DNA from: an uncultured delta proteobacterium
GTDB lineage: Bacteria; Myxococcota; UBA727; VGSZ01
Direction of reading: 5' to 3'
Length of the DNA: 64,000 nt
NCBI GenBank assembly: GCA_963775425.1
Contig: CAVZJB010000009.1
Coordinates: forward strand, 16,616 to 80,615
Shown here: positions 1 through 31,862 of the stretch, piece after piece
Layout: every line of letters begins with the position of its first letter
Position numbering within the stretch: position 1 is the stretch's first letter
Made by a program: the position numbers and the translations under genes
The notes under the pieces: model-generated
Told to the model about the DNA's origin: nothing
The model's input: the letters and a program-made list of their open reading frames with translations, nothing else
Database searches by the model: none

Positions 1-51
1 TTCCGCGACTTCATGCGGTGTGTGCGGAGCCGCCTCGAGAAGCGCGACTAG
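1..51 (+). CDS. 3' end of an upstream ORF (…FRDFMRCVRSRLEKRD*), truncated by the window edge; possible partner (E2/Ubl-like?) of the JAB-E1 gene
   Basis: In-frame reading to TAG at 49-51; immediately upstream of the JAB-E1 gene with a Shine-Dalgarno (AAGGAGG) in between; identity not determinable from 16 aa. Confidence 0.25.
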   Translation, partial: FRDFMRCVRSRLEKRD

Positions 52-83
52 GCCGACGAACAACAACAAAGAAGGAGGTGTGT

Positions 84-1385
84 ATGCGACTCAAGGTGAG
101 CGAAGCGGCGTGGAACGCGTTCAGTGATCACCTGCTCGAGCGGACCGACGTCGAGAGCGCGGGCATTGTGCTCGCCCGCGCTCTCGACGCGGCCGACGGG
201 CCTCTGCTGGTCGCGGACGAGCTGCTCGTCGTCCCCGACGATGGGTATCTCATCCGGCGGTTCGATCAGATTCGGATCGACCCGATCGCGATGAACGGGA
301 TGACGCAGCGGGCGCGTGACGAGGGCTTGTCGATCTTTACGGTTCACACGCATCCGATGGCCAACGAGGCTTGGTTCTCGTGGGCCGACGACAACGGCGA
401 CAAGCGCTTGATGCCGAGCCTGCACGCGCAGGCGCCAGGTCCGCACGGCTCGATCGTGATCGTGCCCGGCGGCGGCGTGTTGGCGCGTGCGTTCAACGAG
501 GAGGGGGTGGCGACGTCGGTCGACTTCGACGTCGTCGGGCGCCGTCTGGTTCGTCACCGGCAAGCGCGCGAGCGCGTCGAGGACGAGCGCTTCGCGCGGC
601 AGGAGCTGGCGCTTGGGCCCGCGGGGCAAACGCGCCTGCGCAGTTTGCGGGTCGGTGTGATTGGGCTGGGCGGCGTCGGCTCGATCGTCGCTGCACAGCT
701 CGTGCACCTCGGCGTCGGCGAGCTCGTCTACGTCGACGGCGATGTGGTGTCCGAGTCGAACCTGTCGCGCGTATATGGCGCGCGGAGGGGCGACGTCGGC
801 GCGAAGAAGGTGGTGGTGGCGGCGCGTTACGCGACGGAGAGCGGGCTACCGGTGGAGGTCGTGACGGTTGACGACCCGCTCGGCTCGCAGCACGCGGCGT
901 TGCTGCGCTCGTGCGACGTGGTGTTCTCGTGCGTGGACACGCACACGCCGCGGTCGTTGTTGAACGCGCTCGCGTACGAGGCGTTGGTGCCCGTGATCGA
1001 TATGGGGACCGCGTTTCGCATCGATGGTGCGAGCGGCGTTATCACGAGCAGCGGCGGTCGCGTCGTGGTGGTGGGGCCGGGTCGCCCGTGCCTGGGTTGT
1101 TGGGGTCACCTGAACGCCGACCGGCTCCGCGAGGAGGCGCTGTCGAGCGCCGAGCGCGCGGAGCTCGGGCGGCAGGGCTACCTCAGCGGCGCGGACGTGG
1201 CGCAGCCGAGCGTCGTGGCATTCAACACGTACGTTGCCGGGGCGGCGGTGATCGAGCTGTTGCGGTTGGTGACCGGGTTCGCCGGCGCCGACGACCCGCC
1301 GAACCGCCTCGGGTTCATGTTTGAGGACGGCAGCGTGACGCGCAACGAGGTGAACGCGCGGGCGTCGTGTCGATGCACGCGATGA
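84..1385 (+). CDS. Fusion protein: N-terminal JAB/MPN (JAMM metalloprotease, deubiquitinase-like) + C-terminal E1-like ThiF/MoeB adenylyltransferase
   Basis: JAMM motif HTHPMANEAWFSWADD (HxHx7-8SxxD) with upstream Glu; Rossmann GLGGVGS, CxxC zinc motif (PCLGCWGH); ATG at 84 preceded by AAGGAGG; the ORF track starts earlier at a GTG (18). Confidence 0.8.
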   Translation: MRLKVSEAAWNAFSDHLLERTDVESAGIVLARALDAADGPLLVADELLVVPDDGYLIRRFDQIRIDPIAMNGMTQRARDEGLSIFTVHTHPMANEAWFSWADDNGDKRLMPSLHAQAPGPHGSIVIVPGGGVLARAFNEEGVATSVDFDVVGRRLVRHRQARERVEDERFARQELALGPAGQTRLRSLRVGVIGLGGVGSIVAAQLVHLGVGELVYVDGDVVSESNLSRVYGARRGDVGAKKVVVAARYATESGLPVEVVTVDDPLGSQHAALLRSCDVVFSCVDTHTPRSLLNALAYEALVPVIDMGTAFRIDGASGVITSSGGRVVVVGPGRPCLGCWGHLNADRLREEALSSAERAELGRQGYLSGADVAQPSVVAFNTYVAGAAVIELLRLVTGFAGADDPPNRLGFMFEDGSVTRNEVNARASCRCTR

Positions 1386-1388
1386 CGG

Positions 1389-2507
1389 TCAGCCCTTGGC
1401 GTTCTTGCCGAGCTTCACCATGAGCTCGGCACCGAAGCCGGGGCTGACCATCTTTTCTCTGCGCAGGCGACCGACAACGACGCAAGGATCGACGCCGACG
1501 CTGCGCGCGAAGCGAACGACGTCGTCGATCGTCGGAGCCGTGCGTGCGAGAAACATGCGGAGCGCCTTCGGGTCGATCAGCGTGTCCGTGGCATAGCGGT
1601 CGGCTTCGGCTTCTTCGACAGCGACGTCCGGAGCAATATCTTGATCTTCGTCTTCGATGAAGATCGCGCGCTTCGCATGAAAGAGGATGTGAGCAGCTTC
1701 ATGGAAGAAGTTGAACCAGAAGATGTCGAGACGGTCCCACAGGAATGTGTTTTGGATGAGCGCCTTGTCCTGTGAGAGCCAACGGGCCGCAGCCTTGATG
1801 CCCGCACCTGGGAATTCCTCGACCATCACGACGACGACGCCGGCCTCGGCGCAGAGACGCTGGATCTCCGGCATGATGTCGGCGAGCTTCTTCTTCGTGA
1901 GCAACGTCTCGCGGATGGTCTTCACTGCGGCGACAAAGCGGTCGCGGTCGTATGGAGCTGGCGCCACTTTCTGCGCCTCAAGCTCACCGCTGCGTAGCCA
2001 CGCGGCGATTTTCCCGTGCTTCTCAGAGACGCTTGGCGTGCGGCGCCACTTCGACTGGTGGTCGATGTACAGCGCCTTCCAATTCTCGGGGGTCGCCATC
2101 CCGAAGAACGACAAGACCTCACGAGCGCGTTCGGCGCGTGTGTGCGTGGGCCTCAGCCACTTTCGCTTGACCATCTCGTTGAGCGGCAAGCTCCACTTGG
2201 CGATTTCGGCGTCGTAGTCGAGGAGGCGCTTGTCTTCCTCTTGGCGCGCAAGCGACTCGCGGTAATTCTGTTCGCGGCTGAGCCAGAAGCCCGCAGAGGG
2301 CTCGCCGAGCACGCGTTCGAGCTCGAGCGCGGTGTCCGGCGTGATCGCTGTCTTGCCCTTGACGATCTCGTTGATGGTTTTCTTGGGCCGACCCATGCGC
2401 TGGGCGAGTTCCGACTGCGTCATGCCGCGTTGATCGAGCAACTCGACGAGCGTCTCGCCGGGGAGCGACACGACGGGCGGCTGGTATTTGTTCTTCGTCT
2501 CAGTCAT
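1389..2507 (-). CDS. HTH-XRE DNA-binding domain fused to ImmA/IrrE-family (COG2856) zinc metallopeptidase; antitoxin-like partner of upstream HigB-like gene
   Basis: N-terminal HTH (GMTQSELAQRMGRPKKTINEIVKGK), C-terminal HEAAHILFH (HExxH); ATG at 2507 overlaps the upstream gene's stop by 8 nt (ATGACTGA); track ORF starts at TTG 2525. Confidence 0.75.
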   Translation of the reverse strand: MTETKNKYQPPVVSLPGETLVELLDQRGMTQSELAQRMGRPKKTINEIVKGKTAITPDTALELERVLGEPSAGFWLSREQNYRESLARQEEDKRLLDYDAEIAKWSLPLNEMVKRKWLRPTHTRAERAREVLSFFGMATPENWKALYIDHQSKWRRTPSVSEKHGKIAAWLRSGELEAQKVAPAPYDRDRFVAAVKTIRETLLTKKKLADIMPEIQRLCAEAGVVVVMVEEFPGAGIKAAARWLSQDKALIQNTFLWDRLDIFWFNFFHEAAHILFHAKRAIFIEDEDQDIAPDVAVEEAEADRYATDTLIDPKALRMFLARTAPTIDDVVRFARSVGVDPCVVVGRLRREKMVSPGFGAELMVKLGKNAKG

Positions 2508-2835
2508 CTGCGGTCCCGATTCCAAGCACGCGAACGGTGGTCACCTGGGTCCAGTCGGCGTTGCCGTGAGTCGCGGCCCGGTCGTCGACGGGCTCGAGGA
2601 TGAGGCCGTGCGGTGGCTGAACAGCGATGTGGAGACGACCGAGCTTCTCAGCATCACCGGTCAGCGCGCCCGGAATGCCCCGAACGTCGCGCAGCGTCGG
2701 CGCGGCGCGTAGGTCGTCGAGCCGCCTGCGGATGCATCGGGCCATGTCTTGGCCCCACTTCTTCTTGAGTGCCACGTCGTCGTGGAAGAGCTGCTCGACT
2801 TTGTCCGTCTTGAAGGTGATATCCACGGACATCAT
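2500..2835 (-). CDS. higB: HigB-like (COG3549 'plasmid maintenance system killer') RelE-superfamily toxin
   Basis: ~111 aa: ITFKTDKVEQLFHDDVALKKKWGQDMARCIRRRLDDLRAAPTLRDVRGIPG matches the HigB pattern; translationally coupled to the HTH gene downstream; start chosen at MMSVDI (track ORF extends to 2934). Confidence 0.6.
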   Translation of the reverse strand: MMSVDITFKTDKVEQLFHDDVALKKKWGQDMARCIRRRLDDLRAAPTLRDVRGIPGALTGDAEKLGRLHIAVQPPHGLILEPVDDRAATHGNADWTQVTTVRVLGIGTADD

Positions 2836-2952
2836 CCGTGTCCACTCTGGTTCACGGAAAAGGTGAACAAGAGGATCGGCTGACGGCATGGTGGCATAGG
2901 GTGACTGATAGCGCACCCATGACCACGCGTCCAATCGCCTGCTGAAGAGCGA

Positions 2953-4938: not shown

Positions 4939-5265
4939 ATGGCCAGGGAGTCGAGGGTGGTGTGGGCGCGGCGGGTGGCGCGGTGGGCGAAGAGCGGCCT
5001 GTCGCGCGAGGAGTTCGCGGCGCGTGAGGGCGTGAAGGCGACGACGCTGTCGTGGTGGCGCTGGTACCTGGGCCGCGACGGTGCGGCGCCAGCGCGGATG
5101 CTCGCGCGGCCCGAGCCAGCCTTCGTCGAGGTCGAGCCGGTCGTGGTCGAGGCCGTGAGCGAGCGCATCGAAGTGGCGCTCACCAACGGCCGCGTGGTGC
5201 GCGTACCGATGACGTTCCGCGACGACGCTCTCGTGCGCGTGCTTGCCGCCGCGGAGTCCCGATGA
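4939..5265 (+). CDS. tnpA: IS66 OrfA (TnpA, HTH accessory protein)
   Basis: MARESRVVWARRVARWAKSGLSREEFAAREGVKATTLSWWRW… typical IS66 OrfA; stop overlaps tnpB start (ATGA). Confidence 0.8.
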   Translation: MARESRVVWARRVARWAKSGLSREEFAAREGVKATTLSWWRWYLGRDGAAPARMLARPEPAFVEVEPVVVEAVSERIEVALTNGRVVRVPMTFRDDALVRVLAAAESR

Positions 5266-5654
5266 TCCCGGCCGGCCTGCGCATCGTCGTCGCGCTCGCG
5301 CCGATGGACATGCGGCGCTCGATAGACGGCCTTGTCGCCGCCGTCGCCGACCGGCTCCACCAGGACGCCGCAGTCGCGCGCGTGGTCTACGCCTTCGCCA
5401 ACACGCGCAGGGATCGCGCAAAGCTGATCTGGCGCACCGAGCATCAATGGTGCCTGCTGTACACGCGGCTCGACGCCGGCTACCGCGTGACGCTGCCCGT
5501 CGCGCAGGATGGCGTGGCGAGCGTATCGGTCGATGCTCGCCAACTGGCGGCGATCCTCGACGGCGCGAAGAAGCGCGCGACGACGCGCGAGACCGTTCGC
5601 GAGGCGCGCGCGAAGGTGTCGATTTCTTCGCCAAGCTCGTCGACGAGGCGATAG
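5262..5654 (+). CDS. tnpB: IS66 OrfB (TnpB accessory protein)
   Basis: MIPAGLRIVVALAPMDMRRSIDGLVAAV…LIWRTEHQWCLLYTRLDAGY is the conserved IS66 Orf2 family. Confidence 0.8.
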   Translation: MIPAGLRIVVALAPMDMRRSIDGLVAAVADRLHQDAAVARVVYAFANTRRDRAKLIWRTEHQWCLLYTRLDAGYRVTLPVAQDGVASVSVDARQLAAILDGAKKRATTRETVREARAKVSISSPSSSTRR

Positions 5655-5662
5655 ATCATGGC

Positions 5663-7402
5663 GTGAACGAGGAGCTCACCGACGTCAACGTGCTGCGCGC
5701 GCGCCACCTCGAGACGGTGGCGATGCTCGAAGCGCTGAAGAAGGCGTACGACAAGCTCCTCTTCGAGCACGAGCTGCTGAAGCGGCAAGTGCTCGGTCCC
5801 AAGGCCGAGCGCGTCAAGAACGCGCAGGCGCAGGCTGAGCTGCCGCTCTTGGAGTTCGTCGCGGCGATCGGCAGGCTTCAGGCCGGTGACGAGAGCGCTC
5901 TCGACGACGCCCAGAGGGCCCTCGACGAGGCGACAGCGGCGCTCGGGGGCGGCGGCGACGACGCGCTAGAGAAGCCGTCGAGGCCTGGCGGCCATGGTCG
6001 CCGCAAGCTCCAGCTCGAGGATCTGCCGCTTCACCGCATCGTGCTGTTGCCGCCCGAGCGACTCGCTCCTGGCGGCGAGAAGCTGGTGAAGATTGGCGAG
6101 GAGGTGACGCAGCTTGTCGAGCGGCAGCCGGCCTCGATCGTGCGCATCGAGGTCGTGCGCGAGAAGTTCGCAGCGCCAGCGGACGCGGAGGCTACGTCTC
6201 CGCCGGCGAGCGCGCCGCCCGTAGCGCCGGAGAGCTCGACGATCGCCGGCGCGCCCCCGCTCGGGCGCGCGCCGCGCGCCGTCTTCATCGCCGACATGCC
6301 GGAGCGCGTGATCCCGAAGGCGATGGTCGAGCCGGGGTTCCTCGCGCACGTGTTGGTGTCGAAGCACTGCGACCACATCCCGCTGAACCGCCAGGAGGGC
6401 ATCTTCAAGCGGGAGGGGTTCAAGGTGTCGAGCTCGACTCTCGGCGATTGGGTGGAGGCGTCGACGAACCTGCTTGCCCATGTCGTCGACGCGATGTGGA
6501 AGGACGCGAAGGAGAATGCGTCGTACTGCATCGTCGACGCGACCGGCGTCTTGGTGCAGGCGAAGGGCGAGTGCCAGCGCGCGCACTTCTACGTCGCTGT
6601 CGTACCGCAAGAGCACGTGCTGTTCCGCTTCACTCGGAAGAACGACGGGCCGACCGTCGCGGCGCTGTTCGAAGGCTTCAAGGGCCACGTCCACGCCGAC
6701 GCGGCGACCGTCTACCACGAGCTCTACCGGCGCGAGCTTCAGCACCTCACCGAAGTCGGATGTTGGGCCCACACGCGGCGGAAGTTCTTCGATGCGCTGT
6801 CGCGCGATCGGGAGCGCGCGCTCGTCGGCATCGGGTACATCAGCCACCTCTATGACGCCCACCGCGCAACGCTCGACAGCGACGGGGTCGCCGACACGAA
6901 GAGGCGCGCCGAGCTCGCTCGCCCCATCCTCGCGAAGCTCTTGTGGTGGGCGCGCCGCGAATTCCGCGCGGTCGCGCAAGGCACGCCGATCCATCTCGCC
7001 CTCGGCTACCTTGTCCGCCAAAGGCGCGCGTTGCTTCGCTTCCTCGACGACGGGCGCATACGCCTCGACACGAACCCCGCCGAGCTTGCGCTACGGCGCG
7101 AAGCCGTGGGACGGAAAAACTGGATCTTCGTCGGCAGCGACAACGGCGCGAAGTGGAACACGATCGCCGTGTCGCTCATCGCGAGCTGTCAGATGCATGG
7201 CATCGAGCCGTGGGCGTACCTGCGCGATGTCCTCACGCTGCTGCCCTCGTGGCCCCACCAGCGTGTGCTTGAGCTCGCACCGAAGAGCTGGCGGACGACG
7301 CTCGCGACGTCCGAGGTGCAGGAACGGCTCGCCACGCTCCGGCTGATCGACCGCGCCACGCCAGTGCGGCCGACTGACGCCATCGCCGCCGTCGACCTAT
7401 AG
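5663..7402 (+). CDS. tnpC: IS66-family transposase (TnpC, DDE); start uncertain (GTG guess)
   Basis: N-terminal leucine-zipper-like LTDVNVLRARHLETVAMLEALKK, core …HIPLNRQEG…, DDE-type catalytic region; track ORF 5243..7402 begins inside tnpB. Confidence 0.75.
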   Translation: MNEELTDVNVLRARHLETVAMLEALKKAYDKLLFEHELLKRQVLGPKAERVKNAQAQAELPLLEFVAAIGRLQAGDESALDDAQRALDEATAALGGGGDDALEKPSRPGGHGRRKLQLEDLPLHRIVLLPPERLAPGGEKLVKIGEEVTQLVERQPASIVRIEVVREKFAAPADAEATSPPASAPPVAPESSTIAGAPPLGRAPRAVFIADMPERVIPKAMVEPGFLAHVLVSKHCDHIPLNRQEGIFKREGFKVSSSTLGDWVEASTNLLAHVVDAMWKDAKENASYCIVDATGVLVQAKGECQRAHFYVAVVPQEHVLFRFTRKNDGPTVAALFEGFKGHVHADAATVYHELYRRELQHLTEVGCWAHTRRKFFDALSRDRERALVGIGYISHLYDAHRATLDSDGVADTKRRAELARPILAKLLWWARREFRAVAQGTPIHLALGYLVRQRRALLRFLDDGRIRLDTNPAELALRREAVGRKNWIFVGSDNGAKWNTIAVSLIASCQMHGIEPWAYLRDVLTLLPSWPHQRVLELAPKSWRTTLATSEVQERLATLRLIDRATPVRPTDAIAAVDL

Positions 7403-8312: not shown

Positions 8313-9152
8313 TCACTTCCTCTTGTTGGCTGCGGTCTTCTTGGCGACGGGCTTCTCGAAGGCCTCGAGGAAGAGCTTCTCGTCGAGCCGCTGGGCGCCG
8401 GTGTCGGCGCCGATGGCCAGGAGCTCGTCGGCGAGGTTCATGAGGATGCGGTAGTTGCCGGCGGCGTGGTCGGCGAGGGTGGCCTTGAGCTCGGTGGTCA
8501 TGAGCGTGGGGTTGCCCGCGGTCTCGAGGAGGTGGTCGAGGCAGGCGAGGAGCTCGTCTCGGGGTGCGTATTCGAGGACGAGGCGCCGGCGGATGCGGCT
8601 TCCAAGCGGGAGCAGCTCCGGGGAGCGGAAGCGCTCCGGCAGCCGCTGGTCGCCGGCGAAGACGACGCAGAGGAGCTGGCGGGAGTCGAGGTCCTTGCTG
8701 GCGAGGACGCGCAGCTCGTTGAAGACGGTGGTGAGGGTCTCCTGGGCCTCGTCGATGACGAGGACGGGACGCATGAGCGTGGTGGTGATGTGCTCGTGCC
8801 AGCGCGCGCGCAGCGCCTTGAAGCCCGCCCATCGGTTGTGGGACTGGAGCGGCACGCCGAAGAGGTCTCCAACTTCGCGGTAGAAGTCCATGGTCCGGGA
8901 CTGCGGGTGCTCGACGATGCCGACGACGACGTCGCGGATCTCCTCGAGCCGCTTCTTCAACAGCCGCAGGGCGACGCTCTTCCCGGTCCCGGGCTCGCCG
9001 GTGATCATCACGTAGCCGCCGTCGGCGATGCCGAGCTCGACGCGTCGCAAGAACGCGTCGACGGCAGGCGTCGTGTAGAGCGCCTCGATGGGCACGTCGG
9101 GTCGAAAGGGGTGGAACTTCAGCCCGTAGGTCTGCAGGAGCTTGTTCTTCAT
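8313..9152 (-). CDS. tniB: TniB-like AAA+ ATPase (transposition helper, ExeA/TniB family)
   Basis: Walker A GEPGTGKS, Walker B VLVIDEAQ; start overlaps the tniA stop. Confidence 0.8.
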   Translation of the reverse strand: MKNKLLQTYGLKFHPFRPDVPIEALYTTPAVDAFLRRVELGIADGGYVMITGEPGTGKSVALRLLKKRLEEIRDVVVGIVEHPQSRTMDFYREVGDLFGVPLQSHNRWAGFKALRARWHEHITTTLMRPVLVIDEAQETLTTVFNELRVLASKDLDSRQLLCVVFAGDQRLPERFRSPELLPLGSRIRRRLVLEYAPRDELLACLDHLLETAGNPTLMTTELKATLADHAAGNYRILMNLADELLAIGADTGAQRLDEKLFLEAFEKPVAKKTAANKRK

Positions 9153-10621
9153 TCGTGGTCCTCGTCGTTGTCGTCGTCGCTATCTTTGGGGATGTAGGCG
9201 GGCGGCAAACCGGTGGCGGCGTAGTCCGCCATGAGCCTCTTCAAGAGCGGCGCGATCCCGGCCGGCGCCGGCGGGAGCGATGGCGGATCGGCCGAGAGCG
9301 CCCGGCGCCCACCGGCAGCGTTCTTGTGTTTGTCGAGCGGCAGGAGTGTGGTGAGGTGCTTGCCGGTGCGGTGGTCGACGAGGTCGATGCTCGACAGGTC
9401 CCACCGAGCGACGCGCACGCTGGGGCGCAGCAGGGTGCGGTAGGTGGAGGGGATCTCGAAGCGGACGCCCTCCACGGTGATGGTGCCGTCGCTTCTGCGC
9501 TGCGTGCGCCGCACCTCCATGCGGAAGGCGCGGCGGAGCTCGTCACTCGAGGGGCACGGCCGCCCGAGGTCAGGGCCCCGCAAGAACCGCTCGAGCGGCG
9601 TCTCGCCGATCTCGTCGTGCCTCTTCCGGTTGTACTCGCCCTCGACCCACGCCTGGGTGGCGCGGTTGAGGAGCTCGAGGGTGAGCTCCTTTTCGCCCTC
9701 GAGCATCGCCATGAGGCGGGCCTCGACCTGGCCCCAGAAGGACTCCTGCTTGCCGTTCTGCTCCGGCGTCTCGGGCAGCGTCGTGTGGTGCGTGATCGAG
9801 AGGCGCTCGAGCCCCTGCGCGCTCTCGGCGGCGAGGAACGCCTTGCCGTTGTCCGAGAGCAGCGCCCGCGGCAGCCCGCGCTTCATGAGCGCCTGGCTGA
9901 AGCCGTGTACGAAGGACTCAGCCTTCTCCTCGCCGAGGTACCACTGCAGGTGGCAGCACAGCCGGGAGTGATCGTCGAGGACGCCGAACGCCACCGGCTT
10001 CTGCCACTCGCCGCTCGGCAAGAGCACCTTGCGCTTGCACTCGTGGAAGTCCGTGTGCCACAGCGCGTTCGTGTGCTCCACCTCGAACGAGCGGCGCTCC
10101 CTGGGAACGAAGGAGGGATCAGCCTCGTGTCGACGAGCCCGGCGGGCCTTCTGGAGGCCGTTGCGCTTCATGTACCGGCAGACGCTCGCGTAGCCCGGCA
10201 GGGGCACGAGCGTCGCGTCCTCCGCCGCGAGCGCCTTCAGGTTGTCGAAGACGAGCTGGAACGTCCAGCGTGGGTGCTGCTTGCGGAGGAGCCTGATCTT
10301 CGCGGCGACGGCCACGGAGATACTCGGCTGCGTACCCGCGTGCCTGGGCACCCTGCGCTCGAGCGCCTTGATCGGGTCCGGCTCGTCCTTGGCGGTGTAG
10401 TACCAGCGCTCGATCGTCTTCGGGCTGAAGCGGATGGTTTCGCCGGTCGTCGGGTGACGCCAAGGCTTGTTGGCGAGAGCCTCGATGCGTGCCCAGAGCT
10501 CGCCGGCCTCCGCGGGCGCGCTCAGGAGCGGCCCGATGATCGCAAAGCGCAAGCGTGCCCAGCGCACGCGCGGCGGCGTGTCGTTGTCGTTGGCCATGGG
10601 GATCTCCGTCGGGCGCGACAT
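9149..10621 (-). CDS. tniA: TniA/TnsB-like DDE transposase (N-terminal HTH, rve integrase core, Mu-transposase C-terminal domain)
   Basis: …HTDFHECK…DNGKAF…E… catalytic region, C-terminal TVEGVRFEIPSTYRTLLRPSVRVARWDLSSIDLV barrel; alternative start at 10597 (MANDND). Confidence 0.8.
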   Translation of the reverse strand: MSRPTEIPMANDNDTPPRVRWARLRFAIIGPLLSAPAEAGELWARIEALANKPWRHPTTGETIRFSPKTIERWYYTAKDEPDPIKALERRVPRHAGTQPSISVAVAAKIRLLRKQHPRWTFQLVFDNLKALAAEDATLVPLPGYASVCRYMKRNGLQKARRARRHEADPSFVPRERRSFEVEHTNALWHTDFHECKRKVLLPSGEWQKPVAFGVLDDHSRLCCHLQWYLGEEKAESFVHGFSQALMKRGLPRALLSDNGKAFLAAESAQGLERLSITHHTTLPETPEQNGKQESFWGQVEARLMAMLEGEKELTLELLNRATQAWVEGEYNRKRHDEIGETPLERFLRGPDLGRPCPSSDELRRAFRMEVRRTQRRSDGTITVEGVRFEIPSTYRTLLRPSVRVARWDLSSIDLVDHRTGKHLTTLLPLDKHKNAAGGRRALSADPPSLPPAPAGIAPLLKRLMADYAATGLPPAYIPKDSDDDNDEDHE

Positions 10622-23449: not shown

Positions 23450-26400
23450 GTGCACGCTGCGCCGACACCACCCTGGAAACTGTCAGGTCGCGGCCGCGAA
23501 TCCGGTCGGGCTACGCTCGGGGGCGGGGGACAGCGTGCGGAGTCCCTGAACAAGGCCAAGCTCAAAGCCTTCGCGCCCAAGGCGCGTCGAGACCTCATCC
23601 GGGCCGTCACCGACCGCGCCCAGAAGCTCGGCATCACGAAGGATGGTGCGTCCGACGTCGTCATCCAAGGCGACTCGGCGATCATCATGGGTCAGCCGTA
23701 CCCACGGAAGACGGGCGAGATGCGCGAGGCGCTCCGCCAGCGCATCGGACAGCAAGGCTTCTCGCAGGTCATCGAGGCGGCTGCATACACGTGGTTCAAT
23801 CGCTTCATGGCGCTGCGCTACATGGAAGTGCACGGCTACCTCGACCACGGCTTCCGCGTGCTGTCGGACCCCGAGTCCACAGACACCGGCGCGCTGCCGC
23901 AGATTTTGGGCGAGGCTGAGAACGTCGAATTGCCTGGGCTCAATCGCGAGCTCGTCGTTGAGCTCAAGCTGGCGGGCAACAAGGACGCGGAGCTGTACCG
24001 GAGGCTGGTGCTCGCGCAGTGCGAGGCGCTGCACGCGGCGATGCCATTCCTTTTTGAGCCCATCGACGACGACACCGAACTGTTGCTGCCCGACAACTTG
24101 TTGCACTCGGATTCGATCGTTCGTGGACTTGTGAACGACATCGACGAGGAGGATTGGCAGGAGGTCGAGGTCGTTGGCTGGCTCTACCAGTTCTACATCG
24201 CGGAGAGGAAAGACGAGGTCATCGGCAGCGTGATCAAGAGCGAGGATATTCCCGCCGCGACGCAGCTCTTCACGCCCAACTGGATCGTCCAGTATCCTCG
24301 TTCAGAACAGCGTGGGTCGGCTTTGGCGGCTGGCGAACCCATCGTCGACTCTGTCGCAACAATGGCCGTACTTCATCGACCTGCGAAGCAGACGCCCGAG
24401 GTGCAGGAGCGACTCGACGCCCTGATTAAGTCGCGCATCGTTCAAGACGGCGAAAGCTTGAACCCAGAATCGATCACCATCCTCGATCCAGCGTGCGGCT
24501 CGGGCCACATACTCGTCGTCGCCTACGACGTCCTCAAGGCCATCTACCTCGAGCGTGGATATCAGCCCCGCGAAATTCCGCGCCTGATCCTCGAGAAGGA
24601 ACCTCTTCGGACTCGACATCGACGACCGCGCCGCGCAACTTTCGTCTTTTGCGCTCTGCATGAAGGGCCGTGCGGATGATCGACAGCTCTTCAGCAAGCC
24701 GCCGATTCTAAATGTCCTGCCGATTGCGGACACCGAAGGGCTACGGCTCGACAACCTGGCAACCGACCTCGTGCCGCTCGGCGTTCCCTTTGCTCACCTG
24801 AGCGCTCTCCTCGAGGTGTTCAAACCCGCAAAGACGCGGGGATCGCTTATTCAGATCCCCGAGGAACTGCGCACCGCGTTGCCGTCGATCGCCGTCACGC
24901 TGGAGGCTGCCGGTGCGGCCATGGCCACCCCCGAGGCCCAACTTCAACGTGCGAAAGTCGCGCTACTTGTTCGGCAAGCAAGCATCCTCTCGATGAAGGT
25001 AGACAACGTCATCGCGAACCCGCCGTACATGAACAGGAAGTACCTGAACAACGATCTCGATGCCTTTCTGAAGACGCAATATACCGCCACGCAAATCGAC
25101 CTGTACGCGGCATTTATCATCCGTTCCACTGTATTTGCAAAGGCGACAGGTTTTGTGTCGATGATTGCAATGGATAGTTGGATGTTCGGGCAGGACTTCA
25201 CGTCGACGCGAGCTTCCGTGAACGAGCGCCTCACCCCAATCACGGTGGCACATCTCGGAGCCAGGGCGTTCGAGGAAGTGCCTGGTGAGGTTGTGCAAAC
25301 CGCGGCGTTCTCGTCATATCGGGGGCCGGTGGGCGACTTCATTGGCACCTACTACCGTCTAACAAAAGCGAGTTCGTCCGAGGAAAAGCGGGAGCTGCTA
25401 CTGGCTCGCTCGAACTGCTATCGATCCCGGCTTACAGACTTTTCTCTCTTTCCGCGATGCGCCATGATCTACTACGCCAGTGAACGCACGAAGGAAGCGT
25501 TTAGAAATGGCATTACGCTCGGTGATTTTGCCGACGTCGCGACTGGACTTCAGACCGGTAACAATCCTCGCTTTATCAAGTACTGGTTCGAGGTGAGCCG
25601 CGAGATGATCCAGCGGGAGGCGAAGTCTTGTGCGCACGCCGAGCAGATCGGCGGACGTTGGTTTCCCTATGTCAAAGGGAGTGAATACCGGAAATGGTAT
25701 GGCAGCCAGCTCTGCATTCTCGACTGGCGCGATGACGGACGAGAAATACGACATCACCCATCAAGTGCGGTGCGCAATCCAGACTTCTATTTTCGTCCAG
25801 GGATTGCATACAACAACATCTCAAAGGTCTTTTGTGCGCGTGCGGTCGATGCCGGGGCAATCTTCGATCAGAAGAATTCTATGATTTTTCCTCGGAACGA
25901 CGAGGACCGAGCCGGGATCCTTGGCTTCTTGCATAGTTCCGTCGTGTCCCCCCTCCTTGAGGTGGTCGCGCAAAAGGACTTCAACCCGGGCGCGCTACGG
26001 GAGATCCCTCTCGACGGATCCCTCCTCTCCTCCAAGACGGTGGCCACGGCGGTGAACCGACTCGTTCAACTCGCACGGCAGAACTGGGATGCGTTCGAGC
26101 AGTCGTGGGACTTTTCTGGTCATCCAATAGCTTCGTTTCCGTCGACGCGTCTATCGGAAAGCTGGGCGGCATGGCGCGACGCCAATGCCAATGACGCGGC
26201 GCACGCGAAGCAGACTGGAGGATGAAGTCGATCGCGCCTGCATCGAAGCCTACGGGCTCCAAGCGGAACTCTCTGCTGACGTCCCCGAGGAGCAGATTAC
26301 GCTGGTTCGCGCCGATCGTGAAAGGACTGCCAACGCCTCATCTCCTACGCAGTCGGATGCATGATGGGGCGCTACTGTCTCGATGAGCTAGGGTTGATCT

Positions 26401-27071
26401 ATGCAAATGCTAGCAACATTGGCTTCCAGCCAACCCGCTACAAGACCTTCCCGGCCGATACCGACGGCATCATTCCCATTACCGATGCACTCTGGTTCGA
26501 CGACGACGCCGCAAAACGGGTTCGCGAGTTCTTGCATGCCATCTGGGGCGCTGAAAACCTCGACGAAAACATGAAGTGGCTCGCCGAGAGTCTCGGCACC
26601 AAAGCCACTGAGCTTCCCGAGGAGACGATCCGTCGGTATTTGAGTGACAAGTTTTTCAAGGACCATCTGCAGACCTACAAAAAGCGTCCGATCTACTGGC
26701 TGTTTTCGAGCGGAAAGGAGAAGGCGTTCGAGTGCCTCGTCTACCTGCACCGCTACAACGAATCGACACTCTCCCGAATGCGCGCCGACTACGTCATCCC
26801 GCTGCAGGGAAAGCTCGCGTCCCGCGCCAAACTTCTTGAGACCGAGGAGAAGCAGGCGACGTCGACGGCCCAGAAGCGCAAGCTCCAGAAGGAGCTCGTG
26901 GACGTCGAGAAGAAGGTTGTCGAGATCCGAAAGTTCGACGAGCTGCTCAAGCATCATGCCGACCAACGCATCACGCTCGACCTCGATGCCGGCGTGAACG
27001 TCAACTACGGCAAGTTCGGCGACCTGCTCGCGATGGTCGACAAGGTCTGCGGCGAGAAGGAAGAGGAGTAG
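23450..27071 (+). pseudogene. pglX: BREX adenine-specific DNA methyltransferase PglX (BrxX), split by at least 5 single-base frameshifts
   Basis: Conserved blocks found in three different frames: FTPNWIVQY|LVQNSVGRLW…PYFIDL|…ILDPACGSGH…LILEK|NLFGLDIDDRAAQLS…NPPYMNRK…|IEAYGLQ…|ISYAVGCMMGRYCLD…RPIYWLFSSGK…DAGVNVNYGKFGD; indels sit at CC/GG runs (e.g. cagtatCctcgtt, gagaaGgaacc). Confidence 0.8.
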
Positions 27072-29806: not shown

Positions 29807-31862
29807 ATGACAACCGGCAGCGTTCCCACCACCGCAGACACCGAGCTCGATGCGCTTCTGAAGGAGCACTTCGCAGGCAAGATCGTGCGCAAGGCTCTGA
29901 CCAAGCTCGTGAAGGAGGGCGCAAACGTTCCGATCTACGTGCTCGAGTACCTCCTCGGCATGAACTGCTCGTCGAACGACGAGGCAGTCAACGACCTCGG
30001 GCTGAGCGTCGTCAAGGGCATCCTCTCAGACAACTACGTCCGGCCCGACGAGGCTGAGAAGATCAAGTCCAAGATCCGCGAGAAGGGCTCCTACAAGGTC
30101 ATCGATCGCGTCACCGTCCGCCTCAACGAGAAACGCGACACCTACGAGGCCACGCTCTCGAACCTCGGCATCAAAGGCGTCGAGGTCCCGGCGAGCACGG
30201 TCAAGGAGTTCGAGAAGCTCCTCGCGGGCGGAATCTGGAGCGTCATCTCGCTCCAATACTTCTACGAGGAGGGCCAGAAGGGGTCACCGTTCAGCATCTC
30301 TTCGCTCCGGCCCATCCAGACTGCCGAACATGGACATGGAGGGTCTGTTTGCCGGCCGTGGTCACTTCACGACGGCGCAGTGGATCGACGCCTTGGTGCG
30401 GTCCTCAGGCATGGAGCCCTCCGTGCTCGATGAAAACGTCAAGTGGCACTTGCTCGCCCGCATGGTCCCGTTCGTCGAGAACAACTACAACATGGTGGAG
30501 CTCGGCCCGCGCGGTACCGGCAAGAGCCACATCTACAAAGAGATCTCGCCGAACAGCATTCTCGTCTCGGGTGGCCAGACCACCGTCGCAAACCTGTTCT
30601 ACAACATGGGCACGAGCACCATTGGCCTCGTCGGGCTCTGGGATGTCGTGGCATTCGACGAGGTCGCCGGGATCCACTTCAAGGAGAACGACGGCGTCCA
30701 GATCATGAAGGACTTCATGGCCTCAGGCTCGTTCAGCCGTGGTCGTGCACCCGTCGCCGCGTCGGCGTCGATGGTCTTCGTCGGCAACATCGACGGCAGC
30801 ATCGAAACGCTCGTGAAGACGAGCCATCTGCTCGCCCCCTTCCCCGAGGAGATGATCGACTCAGCCTTCTTCGATCGCATGCACGCCTACCTGCCTGGCT
30901 GGGAAATTCCGAAGATGCGGCCGGAGTTCTTCACGAACCAATACGGTTTCATCGTCGACTACCTCGCCGAATTTATGCGCGAGATGCGCAAGCGCAGTTT
31001 CGCTGACGCGATCGACAAGTACTTCCGCCTCGGCCGCGACTTGAACCAGCGGGACACGATTGCGGTTCGTCGCACTGTGTCGGGCCTGCTCAAGCTGGTG
31101 CATCCCAACGAGAAATACGACAAGGAAGACGTCCGCAAGGCTCTGGAGTACGCGCTGCAAGTCCGGCGTCGCGTCAAAGAGCAGCTCAAGAAGATCGGCG
31201 GGATGGAGTTCTACGACGTCCACTTCAGTTACCTCGACATCGAGAGCGGCGAGGAGCGATTCATCTCGGTGAACGAGCAGGGTGGCGGTTCCCTCATCCC
31301 TGAGAGCCCCGCGAAGCCGGGCGTGCTCTACACGGTCGCACGGGGTTCCGGCGGAATGCTCGGGCTCTACCGACTCGAGCTACAGGTCACAGCGGGGTCG
31401 GGAAAGCTGACGTTGTCCGGCTTCGGCTCGAACACGGCGTCGAAGGAATCAGTCAAGGTCGGCTTCGACTTTTTCAAGGCCAACGCGAGCCGTGTGAGCG
31501 CTTCGATGAAGCCCGGGGATCACGATTTTCACCTCCACATCGTCGAACTGCACAACACCGGTCCAACGACCTCGTTGACGTTGCCCGCGGTGCTCGCGTT
31601 TTCGAGCGCGATGCTTATGAAGCCGATCCTCGGCCAGATGGTTGTGCTCGGCGACATGAGCCTCGGTGGAAGCGTCAAGAAGGCCGAAGACCTTGCGAGC
31701 TCGCTCCAGGTCGCCTTCGATGCTGGCGCGAAGCGGGTCTTGATGCCGATGGCAAGCGTCGGGGACATCCCGACCGTGCCCGGTGAGCTATTCGCGAAGT
31801 TCCAGACGAGCTTCTATGCGGACGCCGTCGATGCGGCGTTCAAGGCTCTTGGCGTCGCGTGA
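29807..31862 (+). CDS. brxL: BREX Lon-like protease BrxL; 1-bp frameshift near 30330
   Basis: N-terminal …GKIVRKALTKLVKEGANVPIYVLEYLLGM…NYVRPDEAEKIKSKIREKGSYKVID… then MDMEGLFAGRGHFTTAQWIDALVRSSGMEPSVLDENVKWHLLARMVPFVENNY…GPRGTGKSH in the next frame. Confidence 0.8.

Follow-up and report, generated by a model that had tools for sequence, protein, structure and literature searches.

JAB-E1 fusion gene of the window

We analyzed a stretch of 64,000 nt (hereafter the window) from an uncultured delta proteobacterium (GenBank assembly GCA_963775425.1, contig CAVZJB010000009.1, positions 16,616 to 80,615), focusing on the gene at its left edge, which encodes a JAB peptidase fused to a ubiquitin-activating-type (E1) adenylation domain, and on the operon of this gene. 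An initial annotation, made from the sequence and its open reading frames (ORFs), had placed a JAMM metalloprotease motif, a ThiF-type GLGGVGS loop, and a CxxC pair in one polypeptide spanning positions 1–1385. The motifs were confirmed: the JAMM motif HTHPMANEAWFSWADD (residues 88–103, nt 345–392) lies in the same reading frame as GLGGVGS and CLGC. The anticipated MPN and ThiF domains were also recovered by Pfam in the 433-residue protein, with a ThiF match at an E-value (E) of 2.9e-37 and a Prok-JAB match at E 4.8e-6 (26.9 bits, where the gathering cut-off is 25). The extent of the gene, in contrast, had to be corrected. The mechanical ORF call starts at the GTG at 18, and all homologues in the clade alignment start at the Met (Met-x-Leu-Arg/Lys) equivalent to the ATG at 84. 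Because GAAGGAGG precedes this ATG and the homologues share that Met, we assigned the gene start to position 84. Positions 1–51 read, in another frame, ..FRDFMRCVRSRLEKRD followed by TAG and belong to the end of an upstream gene. The coordinates are summarized in Table 1.

The best solved relative of the protein in a PDB search was Citrobacter BubCD (9ea4, E 7e-34), a match far above what chance would give, and residues 11–395 were collinear with residues 17–401 of that chain. BubCD belongs to the Type I Bub operons, which were formerly called "6E.1" or "DUF6527" operons (Ye, Gong, Chambers & Corbett, bioRxiv 10.1101/2024.11.21.623953) and whose architecture is that of row 6e in Table 1 of Iyer et al. 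2006 (PMC1779556). The JAB domain of Citrobacter BubCD (E28, H91, H93, D104) cleaves BubAB after G229, and its E1 domain has no catalytic cysteine and uses Y370 of the crossover loop (10.1101/2024.11.21.623953). E24, H88, H90, and D102 of the window protein aligned with E28, H91, H93, and D104, respectively; the identity of the catalytic Asp in the Citrobacter enzyme is settled because the alignment includes a D104A variant chain. E24, H88, H90, S99, D102, R229, and Y366 were invariant in 9–11 clade members. PADLOC gave only partial matches, confined to the Rossmann region (residues ~180–320), to Cap2 (E1 fused to a conjugating enzyme, E2) and BilD (E 1e-14 to 1e-7; E 2.6e-7 for the BilD match of the window protein).

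Table 1. Features of the JAB-E1 locus and the adjoining genes in the window (aa, residues; Ubl, ubiquitin-like protein; HTH, helix-turn-helix).
Feature	Position (nt)	Strand	Basis
JAB peptidase-E1 fusion gene (BubCD-like), complete, 433 aa	84..1385	+	Pfam, PDB match, ORF listing
3' end (last 16 codons and TAG) of upstream Ubl-E2 gene (BubAB-like)	1..51	+	contig L001
Shine-Dalgarno-like GAAGGAGG, 5 nt ahead of the ATG at 84	71..78	+	sequence
JAB/JAMM metallopeptidase domain, aa 7-128	102..467	+	Pfam Prok-JAB
Catalytic residues Glu24; His88/His90; Ser99; Asp102	153-155; 345-353; 378-380; 387-389	+	alignment to BubCD
ThiF/E1 adenylation domain, aa 171-413	594..1322	+	Pfam ThiF
Nucleotide loop GLGGVGS, G194-S200	663..683	+	sequence, invariance in clade
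Arg229, aligned with Citrobacter R227	768..770	+	BubCD alignment
Cys336-x-x-Cys339 (CLGC), start of crossover loop	1089..1100	+	sequence
Tyr366, crossover-loop tyrosine, aligned with Citrobacter BubCD Y370 (proposed Ubl~Tyr oxyester site)	1179..1181	+	alignment GYlsG / GYitG
Cys429-x-Cys431, C-terminal, partner of the CxxC in a probable structural zinc site	1368..1376	+	clade invariance
HigA-like HTH and M78 (ImmA/IrrE) peptidase gene	1389-2525	-	HigA model, 53.9 bits against cut-off 47.7
Small HigB-like gene	2500-2934	-	resemblance by eye; no family hit

Ubl-E2 fusion gene upstream of JAB-E1

An exact-protein look-up gave a contig of 7.5 kb (L001) that encodes the identical 433-residue protein and reaches 2.7 kb upstream. 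L001, whose JAB-E1 protein is identical over the overlap, stood in for the window's own upstream DNA together with two related loci (L002 and L003). Directly upstream of the JAB-E1 gene, positions 2056–2691 of L001 encode a 211-residue protein that ends in ..FRDFMRCVRSRLEKRD*, as do window positions 1–51. Pfam placed a Prok-E2_E domain at residues 110–209 (E 8.6e-17) and a Multi_ubiq beta-grasp domain at residues 23–76 (23.5 bits, slightly under the cut-off of 24.5). The initial annotation had expected small beta-grasp and UBC-like genes in this direction, beyond the window edge. Extension of the locus yielded both, but as one gene instead of two: because the 211-residue gene carries both domains, the Ubl and the E2 exist as one fused precursor. 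Together with the BubCD match, this gene bears out the assignment of the JAB-E1 fusion to an operonic Ubl/E2/E1/JAB system.

A profile of the Ubl part built from 18 clade members matched the multi-ubiquitin domain protein of E. coli ZDHYS365 (9cd2, E 5.5e-6) and BilA (8u38, E 1.2e-4). The E2 part of the L001 protein aligned with Citrobacter BubB (9eae_C, E 2e-5), and its PDMF and F-S-W-H segments fell on D299 and S333-x-H335. The Citrobacter E2 uses S333/H335 with D299 (10.1101/2024.11.21.623953). This Asp and the Ser-x-His were invariant among 11 BubAB-like sequences, and the active-site position was without Cys. The junction between Ubl and E2 retained the motif (P)ADYG or PQYG in 34 distinct sequences, the conserved Gly being Gly88. 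The number of beta-grasp repeats per member was one, two (L004), or three (L005).

Conserved partner X

Upstream of the Ubl-E2 gene, L001 carries a long co-directional ORF that ends at the contig edge, and we refer to its product as X. The full-length X of the window's strain (P0002) has 665 residues and is identical to the L001 fragment at 632 of 633 positions. X gave no match in Pfam, NCBIfam, or PADLOC.

We collected 20 loci from a genome scan with the window protein and 70 loci from a metagenome scan with the BubCD clade alignment, and ran hidden Markov models of BubCD, BubAB, and X over all six-frame ORFs of these loci. The close BubCD clade comprised 43 loci (above 500 bits, 44–87% identity). 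In 32 of these, X adjoined the Ubl-E2/JAB-E1 pair and shared its strand, and the 11 loci without X all ended within 1.4 kb of the pair. Every locus with at least 2.3 kb of sequence at each end of the pair carried X (20/20), in several phyla and in both gene orders. The pair was preceded by X in 19 loci and followed by it in 13, and in the latter order the stop-to-stop ORFs abutted or overlapped (e.g., L038, L044, and L048). In a reverse look-up, three further X homologues (E 2e-33, 3e-15, and 8e-11) each adjoined Prok-E2_E and ThiF genes. Hosts of the X-type loci include Myxococcota (e.g., Minicystis rosea, whose copy lies near 13.26 Mb of CP016211), Acidobacteriota, and a gammaproteobacterial metagenome-assembled genome (MAG), in which the G+C content at third codon positions was 0.61–0.71 in the operon and 0.33–0.47 in the flanks.

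All-against-all clustering of the ORFs of 36 loci gave only three conserved families (X, Ubl-E2, and JAB-E1), the other clusters being shadow frames of these genes. A Pfam search of 146 ORFs within ~4.5 kb, taken from ten loci, gave no recurrent family except HTH domains. As a positive control, ORFs flanking JAB-E1 genes of greater divergence were put through the same procedure, which detected DUF6527 (E 2e-10), Multi_ubiq, Prok-E2_E, and pairs of HTH_3 and Peptidase_M78. The DUF6527 protein BubE is a Ser-His protease that removes conjugates, and bubE is stated to be possessed by all Bub operons (10.1101/2024.11.21.623953). The window gene encodes a BubCD-like enzyme, but its operon appears to lack this defining Bub feature.

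Some variation was seen around this arrangement. In a subclade with ~45% identical BubCD, X is split into two overlapping ORFs (L009 3116–5376; L054 3834–6190; L093 830–3098), which correspond roughly to the RdgC-like part and the winged-helix part described below; since the split was seen in independent contigs, it may be real rather than a sequencing frameshift. More distant JAB-E1 and E2 pairs (31–37% identity) occurred without X (L010 11347–12156; L012, L057, L061, L062, and L064). In L010, the product of the gene downstream of the pair weakly resembles TIR (Pfam E 0.005; PADLOC Aga_TIR E 1.4e-4), a hint that these enzymes may have exchanged partners in other cases as well.

Predicted fold of X

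A word-indexed search for X homologues returned four close relatives, with the single sequence and also with a 9-sequence alignment. With clusters defined at the 50% identity level, an exhaustive search of representatives, used instead, gave 323 of them up to an E of 1e-3 and 123 up to 1e-10; the homologues mostly had 680–715 residues. An AlphaFold2 model of P0002 from a 69-sequence alignment (pLDDT 90.1, pTM 0.72) replaced a model from four sequences, in which the N-terminal half had a pLDDT of 64. A Foldseek search of the model against viral models gave phage proteins named RdgC or "exonuclease", aligned over 300–370 columns (E 1e-4 to 5e-3). By sequence alone, positions 587–688 of the X profile matched an OmpR-family effector domain (8uvx, E 7e-6). 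On the basis of the model, X is predicted to start with a helical region, to contain a DNA-binding fold like that of RdgC, and to end in a winged helix of the OmpR/PhoB type. The conserved positions of X were mostly structural (Trp, Gly, Leu, and Pro). We also considered X as CapW, CapH/CapP, or CapK/CapS and rejected these assignments, as the architecture and size differ and PADLOC gave no matches.

Genomic context

The JAB-E1 gene is followed, 3 nt from its stop and in convergent orientation, by the HTH and M78 gene of Table 1. This gene also matched PD-Lambda-2_B (E 2.9e-32) and, weakly, capH/capP. It forms a pair with the small gene next to it. The two closest relatives have this pair in the corresponding place (L002 11304–13104; L003 11305–12949), and other X-type loci do not. 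The HTH and M78 gene was considered as a CapH-CapP-like regulator of the operon and rejected in that role. Because it is convergent, passes the HigA cut-off, and is conserved in two relatives only, we treated the pair as a separate toxin-antitoxin-like pair. L002 and L003 (JACOUT010000014 and JACOUT010000003) are two diverged copies of the whole block in one groundwater "Deltaproteobacteria" MAG, in the order of an ORF of 119–124 residues, X, Ubl-E2, JAB-E1, HigA-M78, and the small gene that is HigB-like by eye. The JAB-E1 proteins encoded there show 87% and 83% identity to that of the window. The presence of two copies in one MAG suggests that the whole block moves or duplicates as a unit.

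Further downstream, the window contains a gene with an RxxxxH HEPN-like motif, insertion-sequence genes, a UvrD/GajB-like helicase gene, a GmrSD-like gene, and, at 18.9–31.9 kb, a type 1 BREX cluster. The defence-rich surroundings proposed in the initial annotation (a toxin-antitoxin pair, a HEPN gene, and BREX) were therefore found as described. Just downstream of the HEPN-motif gene lie IS66-type genes (small accessory ORFs followed by a transposase) at 4939–7402 (+) and a Mu/Tn7-like transposase and AAA ATPase pair at 8313–10621 (-), all identified from their translations only. L001 ends exactly where the IS66 copy starts (window ~4898), which is consistent with an assembly break at the repeat. 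Within the BREX cluster, PglX is spread over three consecutive ORFs (23450–24679, 24660–26225, and 26361–27071; span 23450–27071, +) that match profile positions 1–350, 371–897, and 948–1170; pglX could be frameshifted or inactivated, or the breaks could be assembly errors. BrxL (30330–31862) begins at profile position 170, and the 5' part of its gene may also be disrupted.

The related loci adjoin genes for relaxase, Fic, kinases, integrases, and transposases, and a scan of viral contigs gave no copy of the BubCD clade. These surroundings support a mobile, defence-island setting of the module. They do not amount to evidence of function: a role in defence against mobile DNA is a suggestion from the surroundings only, and the link to antiphage defence drawn in the initial annotation is likewise contextual.

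Proposed pathway and alternative explanations

These results lead us to read window positions 84–1385, with fair confidence, as the last gene of an operon X - Ubl-E2 - JAB-E1, a Bub-like (6E-like) module with X in place of BubE. The conjugation steps are proposed from residue-for-residue homology to Citrobacter BubAB/BubCD, in which cleavage, adenylation, and transfer were biochemically shown. The JAB domain would cut the 211-residue Ubl-E2 precursor past Gly88 (..PPADYG, followed by N), giving a beta-grasp Ubl of ~88 residues with a C-terminal glycine and an E2 of ~120 residues. The E1 domain would then adenylate the C-terminal glycine of the Ubl with ATP, using the Gly loop and Arg229. The Ubl would move as an oxyester to Tyr366 of the crossover loop, subsequently to the serine of F-S-W-H in the E2 (presumably helped by the His and by the Asp of FPDAxPDMF), and would finally be joined to a lysine of the target. 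The cysteines of CxxC...CxC would hold a structural zinc. In the absence of BubE from the module, the JAB domain may serve both precursor processing and deconjugation. X may link the conjugation enzymes to DNA, either by serving as an adaptor or sensor that selects the substrates or by being the target of conjugation.

Several observations weigh against this reading. Of the operon, the window itself contains only the JAB-E1 gene and, from the E2 gene, 51 nt; X and the Ubl were read from L001 and P0002. The identity to Citrobacter BubCD is modest, and the match to BubB is weak at the E-value given above. Two invariant cysteines stand at the start of the crossover loop. DUF6527 was absent among the matches listed (25 of 47 families) for the 146 neighbouring ORFs, and the rest of the genomes was not searched for DUF6527. 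Remote X homologues (E about 1e-8 to 1e-7) stand apart from any Bub genes, so the fold of X has a wider distribution. These homologues (L096 5001–7109; L097 2256–4451; L098 669–2864) include one beside a sigma-70 region-2 protein and one after an Mfd/TRCF-like helicase, which is followed by an unannotated gene of 218 residues. The conserved polar residues of X are few (E138, R205, D210, R213, Y214, Y234, R437, D443, and K628), and the conserved residues contain no recognisable catalytic motif; the role of X is therefore guesswork, and its winged helix could make it simply the transcription factor of the operon. Moreover, Bub operons were not shown to protect against phage as of 2026 (PMC13373217).

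The alternatives differ in the chemistry or in the operon that they assume. In regard to the chemistry, C336-L-G-C339 and the C-terminal C429-x-C431 were all invariant in the clade, the second pair being a CxxC in other members; Citrobacter BubCD has no Cys at the positions of either pair, and the crossover loop of the window protein holds no Cys beyond C336 and C339. The pairing and position of these motifs are those of what we take to be the structural tetracysteine zinc site of the minimal E1s MoeB, ThiF, and UBA5. The catalytic cysteine of ThiF/MoeB (ThiF C184) lies ~12 residues past the CxxC, and the stretch WGHLNADRLREEAL after the CxxC of the window protein holds no Cys at this position. 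Because of the CxC pairing and the Cys-free WGHLNADRLREEAL, the CxxC is most likely a structural zinc site and the Tyr/Ser route the likely chemistry; the CxxC that had been noted in the E1 domain is present but is most likely not the catalytic cysteine. A conventional thioester pathway, with Cys336 or Cys339 instead of Tyr366 as the E1 catalytic cysteine, is to be considered since two invariant cysteines start the crossover loop and published BubCD proteins generally lack them. We judge it improbable, as the CxxC co-varies with the invariant C-terminal CxC/CxxC in the classical zinc arrangement of MoeB/ThiF/UBA5-type E1s, Tyr366 and the E2 Ser-x-His are invariant, and the E2 has no cysteine at its active-site position. 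Another alternative is a sulfur-carrier or cofactor adenylyltransferase of the MoeB/ThiF or CysO-Mec+ type, in which the JAB domain trims a ThiS/MoaD-like carrier; the initial annotation had named a CysO/Mec+-type system as what the gene could be if Ubl and E2 genes were missing upstream. The MoeB/ThiF-like CxxC...CxC site and partial NCBIfam matches to ThiF/MoeB (E 1e-23 to 1e-19) would fit such an enzyme. However, the NCBIfam scores were far under the curated cut-offs (e.g., 83 bits against 275), a Cys at the ThiF/MoeB catalytic position was missing, and neither a rhodanese domain nor conserved sulfur or cofactor genes were found nearby. The adjacent gene encodes an E2-fold protein fused to a Ubl; because this E2 partner adjoins JAB-E1, the sulfur-carrier alternative is refuted, and we leave it almost no probability.

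In regard to the operon, the locus might be an ordinary Type I Bub (6E.1) operon with bubE located elsewhere or missed, and X an unrelated neighbour. The catalytic hallmarks of BubAB and BubCD are indeed all present, and the scan covered only about ±4.5 kb per related locus. This explanation is nevertheless very unlikely, because the 146 neighbouring ORFs gave no recurrent DUF6527 with a method that finds it near distant JAB-E1 genes, just three families were conserved across the 36 loci, and an unrelated neighbour would hardly be adjacent in 20/20 informative loci from several phyla and in both orders. The main rival is that X is only a transcriptional regulator of a two-gene Bub-like module without a part in conjugation, and so matches the role of CapW, CapH+CapP, or CapK+CapS in published Bub operons. 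It draws on the OmpR/PhoB-type winged helix at the end of X, on the frequent pairing of published Bub operons with DNA-damage-responsive regulators, and on the 19 loci with X upstream of the pair. We regard it as unlikely, although distinctly less so than the alternatives above: X, with ~665–760 residues and a large RdgC-like domain, is far above the known regulators in size (CapS, 184 residues); it is co-directional and in 13 loci the last gene, its ORF abutting or overlapping JAB-E1; its co-occurrence of 20/20 differs from that of the interchangeable Bub regulators (8% CapW, 31% CapH+CapP); and it appears exactly where BubE is absent.

Beyond the Bub-like module with X in place of BubE, we tentatively propose a third Bub type, in which a DNA-binding X replaces BubE and couples cysteine-free Ubl conjugation to DNA. 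Invading or damaged DNA might be sensed or bound by X, which would direct Ubl attachment to the proteins on that DNA; alternatively, X might itself be switched by attachment of the Ubl. Among the ubiquitin-like conjugation systems known so far, only those of the Bub type run on tyrosine/serine oxyesters instead of cysteine thioesters, and their targets and biological role are still unknown (10.1101/2024.11.21.623953; PMC13373217). If true, a third type with a DNA-binding X would provide the first lead as to what such pathways modify. The X-type module suggests that the pathway acts on or near DNA, and X is a natural partner on which the roles of adaptor and substrate could be probed.

Comparison with known systems

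The closest solved relatives of the two enzymes, BubCD and BubB of Citrobacter, place the module next to the Type I Bub operons. Both have Ubl-E2 and JAB-E1 fusions, the E/HxH/S/D residues of the JAB domain, the adenylation Arg, and the crossover-loop Tyr; an Asp and a Ser-x-His replace the Cys in the E2, a Gly stands at the Ubl/E2 junction, the beta-grasp repeats number 1–3, and the neighbourhood is of a mobile or defence type. The two differ in that no DUF6527/BubE gene was found at the locus here, where the ~665-residue obligate partner X stands instead, and in that the E1 retains the zinc-type CxxC...CxC site absent from Citrobacter BubCD. The published Bub catalogue comprises operons selected for their DUF6527 gene (PMC11601603, methods), and the X-type clade would therefore escape it; catalogues anchored on DUF6527 thus miss part of the Bub family. 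The Type II Bub operons (6E.2: BubA, BubBD, and BubE) share a related Ubl, as seen from the 9cd2 profile match, and the same oxyester logic, in which the crossover loop supplies a Tyr and the E2 a Ser. Their E2, however, is fused to the E1, they have no JAB domain, their E2 Ser acts with Lys/His, and BubE is present.

The Bil (BilABCD) and Type II CBASS (Cap2/Cap3) systems also contain operonic E1, E2, and JAB enzymes that conjugate via a protein C-terminus, but those enzymes use catalytic cysteines, and only the nucleotide-binding part matched the protein studied here. Bil has separate Ubl, E2, and JAB genes and a multidomain E1 (IAD-AAD-CYS), whereas the genes here are fused and the E1 has a single adenylation domain. 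In Type II CBASS, the E2 and E1 are fused in Cap2, whose conjugation substrate is a CD-NTase, and the JAB enzyme (Cap3) is separate; no CD-NTase family was conserved among the neighbouring ORFs of the clade loci in the Pfam scan or in the ORF clustering of the 36 loci. The operon thus falls outside both Bil and Type II CBASS.

In regard to X itself, no sequence-level match to RdgC families was obtained (no Pfam hit), and no receiver domain of the kind found in OmpR/PhoB proteins was identified. X joins the RdgC and OmpR/PhoB modules to two further parts, a helical region at the N-terminus and an intervening segment of alpha/beta type. It represents a family of about 320 sequence clusters without annotation in Pfam, NCBIfam, or PADLOC, and text searches of the literature on BubCD/BubAB, DUF6527, or RdgC with ubiquitin-like proteins gave no X-type partner. 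The X - Ubl-E2 - JAB-E1 arrangement is apparently an undescribed three-gene version of the Bub-type system, which keeps the catalytic core of the Bub enzymes and has, in place of the deconjugating protease, a large obligate partner that is predicted to bind DNA.

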